A stretch of DNA of 64,000 nt, taken from NCBI RefSeq assembly GCF_003334785.1, contig NZ_QOWV01000005.1; one strand, 5' to 3'. This DNA is from Escherichia coli (GTDB taxonomy: Bacteria > Pseudomonadota > Gammaproteobacteria > Enterobacterales > Enterobacteriaceae). Positions 13,289 to 14,511 of this stretch are shown here, in pieces (positions within the stretch are counted from its first letter, which is position 1; the number at the start of each line of letters is the position of its first letter). Made by a program: the position numbers and the translations under genes. The notes below the pieces were generated by a model. The model did not search any database. It saw only the letters and a program-made list of their open reading frames with translations, and was not told the DNA's origin.

Positions 13289-13428
13289 AGCCTCCCTGCT
13301 CCAGAGATAATATAAAGGGGGGGCTCAACAGATTGATCTTTACGTCGCTTACACTGCAAATATTCAGAAATGAGTCTATGCATTTCACCAGTAAAATCAG
13401 CCATCAGAGAGGGGGTAATGACTCCAAC

Positions 13429-13932
13429 TTATTGATAGTGTTTTATGTTCAGATAATGCCCGATGACTTTGTCATGCAGCTCCACCGATTTTGAGAACGA
13501 CAGCGACTTCCGTCCCAGCCGTGCCAGGTGCTGCCTCAGATTCAGGTTATGCCGCTCAATTCGCTGCGTATATCGCTTGCTGATTACGTGCAGCTTTCCC
13601 TTCAGGCGGGATTCATACAGCGGCCAGTCATCCGTCATCCATATCACCACGTCAAAGGGTGACAGCAGGCTCATAAGACGCCCCAGCGTCGCCATAGTGC
13701 GTTCACCGAATACGTGCGCAACAACCGTCTTCCGGAGCCTGTCATACGCGTAAAACAGCCAGCGCTGGCGCGATTTAGCCCCGACATAGCCCCACTGTTC
13801 GTCCATTTCCGCGCAGACGATGACGTCACTGCCTGGCTGTATGCGCGAGGTTACCGACTGCGGCCTGAGTTTTTTAAGTGACGTAAAATCGTGTTGAGGC
13901 CAACGCCCATAATGCGGGCAGTAGCCCGGCAT
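13429..13932 (-). CDS. insB: IS1 InsB
   Basis: 167 aa ...[58 protein letters not shown]..., canonical InsB. Confidence 0.9.
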
Positions 13933-14126
13933 CCAACGCCATTCATGGCCATATCAATGATTTTCTGGTGCGTACCGGGTTGAGAAGCGGTGTAAGTGAA
14001 CTGCAGTTGCCATGTTTTACGGCAGTGAGAGCAGAGATAGCGCTGATGTCCGGCAGTGCTTTTGCCGTTACGCACCACCCCGTCAGTAGCTGAACGGGAG
14101 GGACAGCTGATAGAAACAGAAGCCAC
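13851..14126 (-). CDS. insA: IS1 InsA
   Basis: 91 aa [43 protein letters not shown]..., canonical InsA. Confidence 0.9.
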
Positions 14127-14511
14127 TGGAGCACCTCAAAAACACCATCATACACTAAATCAGTAAGTTGGCAGCATCACCTGTTCCCAAAATTTTATTT
14201 ATCTTCATCACTTACAGAGAATGCTCAACATTTGCTAGTCTTTTCCTGTCCTGGTATCCAAAGTCTCCTCCCAAATATCCTGGATACTAGCTTAGACAAA
14301 ATGAGATTATATTTATGGTAAATTATATCATAACAGCTTTTGTTAAGGATGCTGTGTAAGATAAAATATATGGGTTAGAGGCAGATTCTTTTGCAATCAG
14401 GAAGAAGATAATCACTGATGTTATCGGATATGTAGCAGTATTCGTTATAGCTATTTAGAGAAATTTGTGCCACAATTTATTATAGAGTTTAAAGAAAAAT
14501 ATATTGAAAAT

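Follow-up and report, generated by a model that had tools for sequence, protein, structure and literature searches.

A full-length IS1 without a target duplication joins two unrelated sequences in a tRNA-Phe island of Escherichia coli

How does a full-length IS1 element come to lie between flanks that show no trace of a target duplication? The question is raised by an IS1 copy at positions 13414-14181 (minus strand) of the window, the 64,000-nucleotide stretch of E. coli contig NZ_QOWV01000005.1 that was analysed. Simple IS1 insertion usually yields duplications of 8-9 bp (PMC12428005), and missing duplications are generally put down to adjacent deletions or to recombination between IS copies (PMC11708052). 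As set out below, this copy is very probably the product of an IS1-mediated rearrangement of one of these two kinds.

The element was delimited by its terminal-repeat match, by alignment with IS1A, and by ORF and NCBIfam profiles. An IS1A-like copy of 768 bp, it aligns end to end with annotated E. coli IS1A copies at 99.7% identity and has the length (~768 bp), the imperfect terminal inverted repeats of ~23 bp starting GGTRATG and the A6C-linked insA and insB′ frames that characterize the family. The right terminal inverted repeat (IRR), at the insB-distal end, was matched exactly at 13414-13436 (plus strand; GGTAATGACTCCAACTTATTGAT), and the left one (IRL), at the insA-proximal end, was matched exactly at 14159-14181 (minus strand; reverse complement GGTGATGCTGCCAACTTACTGAT). 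A search for this end pattern across the 64-kb window returned two matches, both of them the ends of this copy, where none is expected by chance; further IS1 copies bearing the complementary half-duplications are absent from the window by the same search. The insA gene (13851-14126, minus strand, 91 aa) and the insB′ reading frame (13429-13932, minus strand) are both open in the ORF list and both match the NCBIfam profile transpos_IS1 (NF033558), with the -1 frameshift motif AAAAAAC present at 13869-13875 (minus strand). A sequence-only reading had called the copy full length, with both terminal repeats and with insA and insB intact; its 768 bp, exact repeats and open frames bear this description out, with the qualification that codon 11 of insA encodes Arg.

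That codon (14094-14096) is CGC in the window and TGC (Cys) in the orthologous copies of other genomes. The substitution, at 14096, and a synonymous one at 14055 are the two differences between the window copy and its orthologues, and a copy identical to that of the window is absent from the complete E. coli genomes. Residue 11 is the second Cys of the first CxxC in the N-terminal zinc-binding motif of InsA/InsAB′, and residues 8-11 read CPSR instead of CPSC, which leaves the CxxC...CxxC motif incomplete; because Cys11 is replaced, the NCBIfam zinc-domain match (NF050000) begins only at residue 16. This motif reportedly acts in binding the IS1 terminal repeats, and the window copy may be non-autonomous, dependent on transposase from other copies. 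The variant also occurs elsewhere, with an exact 65-nt match in 185 of 8338 records containing IS1. Since the orthologous copies keep Cys, the change probably arose after the rearrangement.

The 9 bp on either side of the element, cagagaggg on the left (13405-13413) and tgttcccaa on the right (14182-14190), agree at 0 of 9 positions. The mismatch that had been reported is therefore real, with the boundaries correctly placed, and a search for an overlooked duplication of 8-9 bp by careful alignment of the ends found none of any length or in any register; the 30 bp beyond each end share no k-mer of length 6 or longer. Such a duplication marks simple insertion events and not the IS1 element itself; its absence here is explained if a rearrangement left IS1 with unrelated flanks.

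To place these flanks, 600 nt comprising the left and right flanks joined together were searched against complete E. coli genomes. The left 300 bp, ending in GAGAGGG, matched more than 1100 genomes at 95-99% identity, inside genes annotated as YagK/YfjJ or inovirus Gp2 family. IS1-free homologues in A24, CFSAN004176 and EC11 encode a protein of 189 aa and read ...CAGCCATCAGAGAGGG followed directly by AATGGCCTTATTAATACC; at the left junction, IS1-free relatives read ...CAGAGAGGG and continue with AATGGCC. The 7 bases adjoining IS1 (gagaggg) are thus native yfjJ-family sequence. By homology to intact relatives, 12935-13413 (minus strand) is what remains, at the 3′ end, of a gene of the YagK/YfjJ (inovirus Gp2-like) family, with 97-99% DNA identity to the intact genes. 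Now a pseudogene, it retains residues 51-189 only, the first 50 codons (150 bp) being missing at IS1, and is also frameshifted in a G-run, with no full-length ORF of ~189 aa left. Two short overlapping ORFs to the left of IS1 (13025-13404) are fragments of this gene.

The right flank is an AT-rich spacer of 357 bp (14182-14538, 32% GC) downstream of the integrase gene; of the 5426 complete E. coli genomes searched, only 51 contain it. Beyond it lie a P4-type tyrosine integrase gene (14539-15801, minus strand; ORF list and protein family match) and, 197 bp further on, the tRNA-Phe gene that serves as the attachment site of the island (15999-16074, minus strand; tRNA match). The adjoining yqgA and speC genes identify the locus as pheV, and the arrangement is that of a tRNA-associated island with a P4-type integrase. 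The order to the right of IS1 is accordingly spacer, integrase, tRNA-Phe, yqgA and speC, with the IRL end (14181) touching the integrase-proximal spacer and the IRR end (13414) touching the yfjJ-family fragment. To the left, the short ORFs are followed by a ColE1-like remnant, a DUF2931 gene and defence cargo. The defence cluster (792-11573), all on the minus strand, comprises a type III restriction enzyme (792-3662), a type III methyltransferase (3665-5293), an IetS protease (5303-7690), an IetA ATPase (7700-8704) and a DrmD-like SNF2 helicase (8706-11573); in A24 and CFSAN004176 this block is part of an island in the leuX region. Two Rfam matches at 11678-11770 (plus strand) lie in the interval that separates the SNF2 and DUF2931 genes: the isrK Hfq-binding RNA scores 56.8 bits, over its gathering score, and the c4 antisense target a1b1 scores 37.5 bits, under its gathering score.

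The same integrase and spacer are found, at 97% identity and without IS1, in Rb-50 (pheV) and CH4784 (pheU), where the junction reads ...GTCTGTCTCC followed by TGTTCCCAGAGTTTT and then runs into enolase-like, SDR, MFS and GntR genes. Alignment of the flanks with IS1-free relatives, which the sequence-only reading had proposed as a check, showed that both sides continue there into different DNA. IS1 in the window therefore joins two sequences that are adjacent in no IS1-free relative. The preference for a deletion or recombination over simple insertion is upheld by the same observations: the left flank lies within a gene, and the right spacer runs into other DNA in IS1-free islands. A simple insertion in the spacer would show the left junction ...TCTCCTGTTCCCAA+GGTAATGACTCC, and one in the yfjJ-family gene would show GGCAGCATCACC+CAGAGAGGGAATGGCC. 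A simple insertion with a decayed duplication was rejected, as 0 of 9 flank positions match and the left flank is an internal gene fragment. That point mutations erased a duplication, or that the joint is an artefact of assembly through collapsed IS1 repeats, is extremely improbable, since the same junctions, with flanks 99.5-100% identical, recur in dozens of independently assembled complete genomes.

It had further been suggested that the IS1 event could explain why the ColE1-like replicon is cut short before its origin. Plasmid homology and Rfam matches delimited a small ColE1-type plasmid segment at 11825-12931 (plus strand), which contains the DUF2931 gene (11966-12559) and RNAI (12633-12738, minus strand; RF00106, 59.9 bits against a gathering score of 47) and matches one uninterrupted stretch of the Escherichia albertii plasmid pEA5_2 at 95.8% identity. 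The segment ends at 12931, ~300 nt into RNAII and ~255 bp before the origin, which lies ~555 nt from the start of RNAII; pEA5_2 continues past the equivalent point towards the origin and rop, and the window has neither. Lacking both, the segment is a non-functional remnant. Homology to the yfjJ family begins at 12935, so the break in plasmid homology lies 482 bp from IS1. A24 and CFSAN004176 have the identical ColE1/yfjJ junction; both align collinearly with window positions 9083-13413 at 98.9%, and in both the yfjJ-family gene is intact and IS1 is absent from this site. Because the break is 482 bp away and is shared with these IS1-free relatives, IS1 did not truncate the replicon, and the suggestion falls. 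The fusion at 12931/12935 is the product of a different event, earlier than that which produced the IS1 joint.

The joint itself is widespread. Identical junctions with the 768-bp spacing are carried by 38 complete E. coli genomes, among them O104:H4 strains, E24377A and other ETEC, and 042. In 042 the island is at pheU and not at pheV, and the same island is thus found at both tRNA-Phe loci in different strains. As the junction is identical at both, it arose once, with integration of the island at pheV and pheU following later; the IS1 junction is old. No publication on this particular junction was found in a literature search. In strain 300709 (L010, 10426-13100) the same IS1 junction and integrase are followed by DUF6387 and other island genes instead of tRNA-Phe, which suggests a tandem or rearranged island array.

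Which of the two kinds of rearrangement produced the joint was considered next. On balance, we lean towards one old IS1-mediated adjacent deletion in the tRNA-Phe island, requiring a single IS1 copy. IS1 would first have entered the AT-rich spacer at a point 357 bp beyond the 3′ end of the integrase gene, with duplication of TGTTCCCAA. Its IRR would then have attacked a target on that molecule directly after codon 50 of the YagK/YfjJ-family gene, and intramolecular replicative transposition would have deleted the intervening DNA, leaving one IS1 copy with unrelated flanks; in islands of this type the DNA lost would be regulatory and yfjI-type genes. No duplication is expected from such an event, because an adjacent deletion leaves a single IS1 with unrelated flanks. 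Thereafter, as present-day genomes show, the junction was inherited and spread with the island, now found at pheV and pheU, and the joint has become a hot spot for entry of resistance regions and for IS1 loss.

IS1 prefers AT-rich DNA for primary insertion. The right flank, at 32% GC against 40-45% on the yfjJ side, is the more AT-rich of the two and fits this preference, and the spacer is the probable original insertion site. In CP4-57-type islands the usual order from the tRNA is integrase, intervening segment, yfjJ-family gene and cargo; the order in the window (integrase, IS1 joint, yfjJ and cargo) would correspond to this order minus the segment between integrase and yfjJ. The arrangement shares with IS-mediated adjacent deletion, as known from the classical IS1 work on the gal region, an intact single IS with one original and one new flank, the lack of a duplication, and a gene truncated exactly at the IS end. 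In contrast to that work, we infer both the deleted segment and the one-copy mechanism here.

The alternative is homologous recombination between two direct IS1 copies, one in the yfjJ-family gene with a duplication of CAGAGAGGG and one beside the integrase with a duplication of TGTTCCCAA, whether the two copies shared an island or lay on separate islands or plasmids, to give a hybrid IS1 bordered left and right by single half-duplications. Its predicted product is identical to the observed junction, and recombination of IS1 with IS1 is documented at this same locus in MLI114 and BEC1 (described below). Other islands, moreover, have either the integrase module or the defence/yfjJ module on its own, in keeping with a mosaic origin. 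IS x IS recombination is also a common cause of missing duplications (PMC11708052), and deletions by recombination between IS copies in the Lenski long-term lines (PMC11708052) leave the same product, an IS with mismatched half-duplications. Recombination of that type requires a second IS1 insertion, however, of which no trace was found here: 0 of the 904 genomes with the 5′ part of yfjJ have IS1 at the yfjJ site, and 0 of the 51 genomes holding the right flank have an IS1 flanked by TGTTCCCAA. Two independent insertions followed by recombination would be needed, and we regard this route as possible, with a probability clearly short of even. The one-copy route carries a demand of its own, in that transposase must have come from another IS1 copy if Cys11Arg preceded the event.

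Several searches bear on both routes. The reciprocal junction of IS1 with CAGAGAGGGAATGG was sought in both orientations, and no match extends into IS1 among the 904 genomes with the yfjJ 5′ part, drawn from 5426 complete E. coli genomes. An ancestor retaining the deleted segment was found neither in complete genomes nor in a metagenome scan; the 51 genomes with the spacer are all accounted for by the IS1 form, the scar form described below, IS1-MDR-IS1 derivatives or the divergent Rb-50/CH4784 islands, and the scan with a 30-mer from the right flank returned five contigs, two of them scars and three ending in IS1. Since the products of the two routes are identical and no ancestor was found, the routes are not separable; adjacent deletion by one copy is slightly favoured on the grounds of fewer events, the AT-rich spacer side, and the lack of any IS1 at the yfjJ site in the 904 genomes.

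A second allele of the locus was encountered in these searches. An IS1-free scar reading ...CAGCCATCACCTGTTCCC... occurs in seven complete genomes (55989 (L001, 8990-9000), UMNK88, ETEC1749, H3, HSP425, UPEC69 and AF58) and in two metagenome contigs. When positions 13407-14179 (773 bp) are removed from the window, the resulting sequence is an exact 400-bp match to all seven scar genomes, and also to L016, the one metagenome contig with enough flank. Comparison with the scar genomes places the ends of the deletion at the two copies of an imperfect repeat, the left one, CAGCCATCA, lying in yfjJ (13398-13406, plus strand) and the right one, CAGCATCA (CAGC-ATCA), inside IRL (14172-14179, plus strand). 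The scar keeps 2 bp of IS1 (CC) and drops 7 bp of yfjJ (gagaggg), and the 773-bp deletion bears the signature of slippage between these short CAGC(C)ATCA repeats. In O104:H4 2011C-3493 (L012, 9285, equivalent to window position 13398) a C-to-T change is present at the first base of the yfjJ-side repeat, which reads TAGCCATCA and not CAGCCATCA, and the gapped match with IRL is shortened.

The 55989-type sequence might instead be read as the ancestral junction, into which IS1 was inserted later. The form is present in seven genomes and two metagenome contigs, and CC before TGTTCCC is found also in the IS1-free Rb-50. The IS1 form, however, carries GAGAGGG, the native continuation of yfjJ in A24, CFSAN004176 and EC11; an insertion cannot recreate those 7 bp (chance ~6e-5) and would add a 9-bp duplication, whereas the scar is the exact product predicted by repeat slippage from the IS1 form. 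An ancestral scar is therefore very unlikely. The 55989-type allele was ruled out as an empty site by the native GAGAGGG and the exact match to the 773-bp deletion, and since the scar is without native gagaggg, it must have arisen from the IS1 form, not the IS1 form from the scar.

Nearly precise excision via short direct repeats has been described for Tn10/Tn5 and for IS elements. With excision of the Tn10/Tn5 type the scar shares short repeats (5 nt exact, CATCA, or 8/9 with one bulge), a small remnant scar, and the location of one repeat inside a terminal inverted repeat. It differs from Tn10/Tn5 excision in that the repeat arises from a coincidental match of yfjJ coding sequence to IRL, and not from a target duplication or the inverted repeats themselves.

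The scar occurs in three genomic contexts. The first is the pheV island of 55989. Its near-identical relative O104:H4 still has IS1; the two differ by 3 SNPs in the 9-kb island and by 0 in 9.3 kb of integrase and core. The second is pheV in the porcine ETEC strains UMNK88 and ETEC1749, with different cargo and the other of two haplotypes, and the third is pheU in four extraintestinal or commensal strains. These contexts suggest that the 773-bp deletion recurred. One informative site separates the scar haplotypes in the SNP comparison, and because it is a single SNP, genomic context is the main argument for recurrence; lateral spread of one scar-bearing island is a possible alternative to recurrent deletion. 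We put forward, tentatively and at not quite even odds, that IS1 was lost independently on more than one occasion, the chance repeat acting as a hot spot for nearly precise excision. The island evidently remained mobile between pheV and pheU even once its integrase-proximal genes were gone.

The same two flanks also bracket IS1-bounded resistance DNA, in two genomes and probably in a third. In MLI114 (L009, 3540-40640) they enclose an IS1B copy, a resistance region of ~37 kb and an IS1A copy, the region comprising Tn21/mer, dfrA5-sul1, tet(A), TEM-1 and ISEcp1-CTX-M-15. In MLI121, the probable case, the flanks likewise lie ~37 kb apart, and in BEC1-S17-ESBL-09 (L014, 4363-6994) a 2.6-kb remnant consists of IS1B and IS1A on either side of a 1.1-kb mer remnant. 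The IS1 junction is an entry point for chromosomal resistance DNA. MLI114 and BEC1 thus resemble Tn9-like and Tn21-carrying composite resistance regions bounded by IS1, in which IS1 copies bracket resistance DNA; the window differs from these in having a single IS1 and no resistance genes.

For the organism, the junction is a stable marker of an island lineage, to which 042, E24377A and the O104:H4 outbreak clone belong. The junction shows that the integrase-proximal region of the island is deleted, and its value lies chiefly in annotation and in the history of the island. The junction is of a textbook, well-understood kind of IS-mediated deletion, the biology of which is already known, and the understanding of IS1 itself is unchanged.
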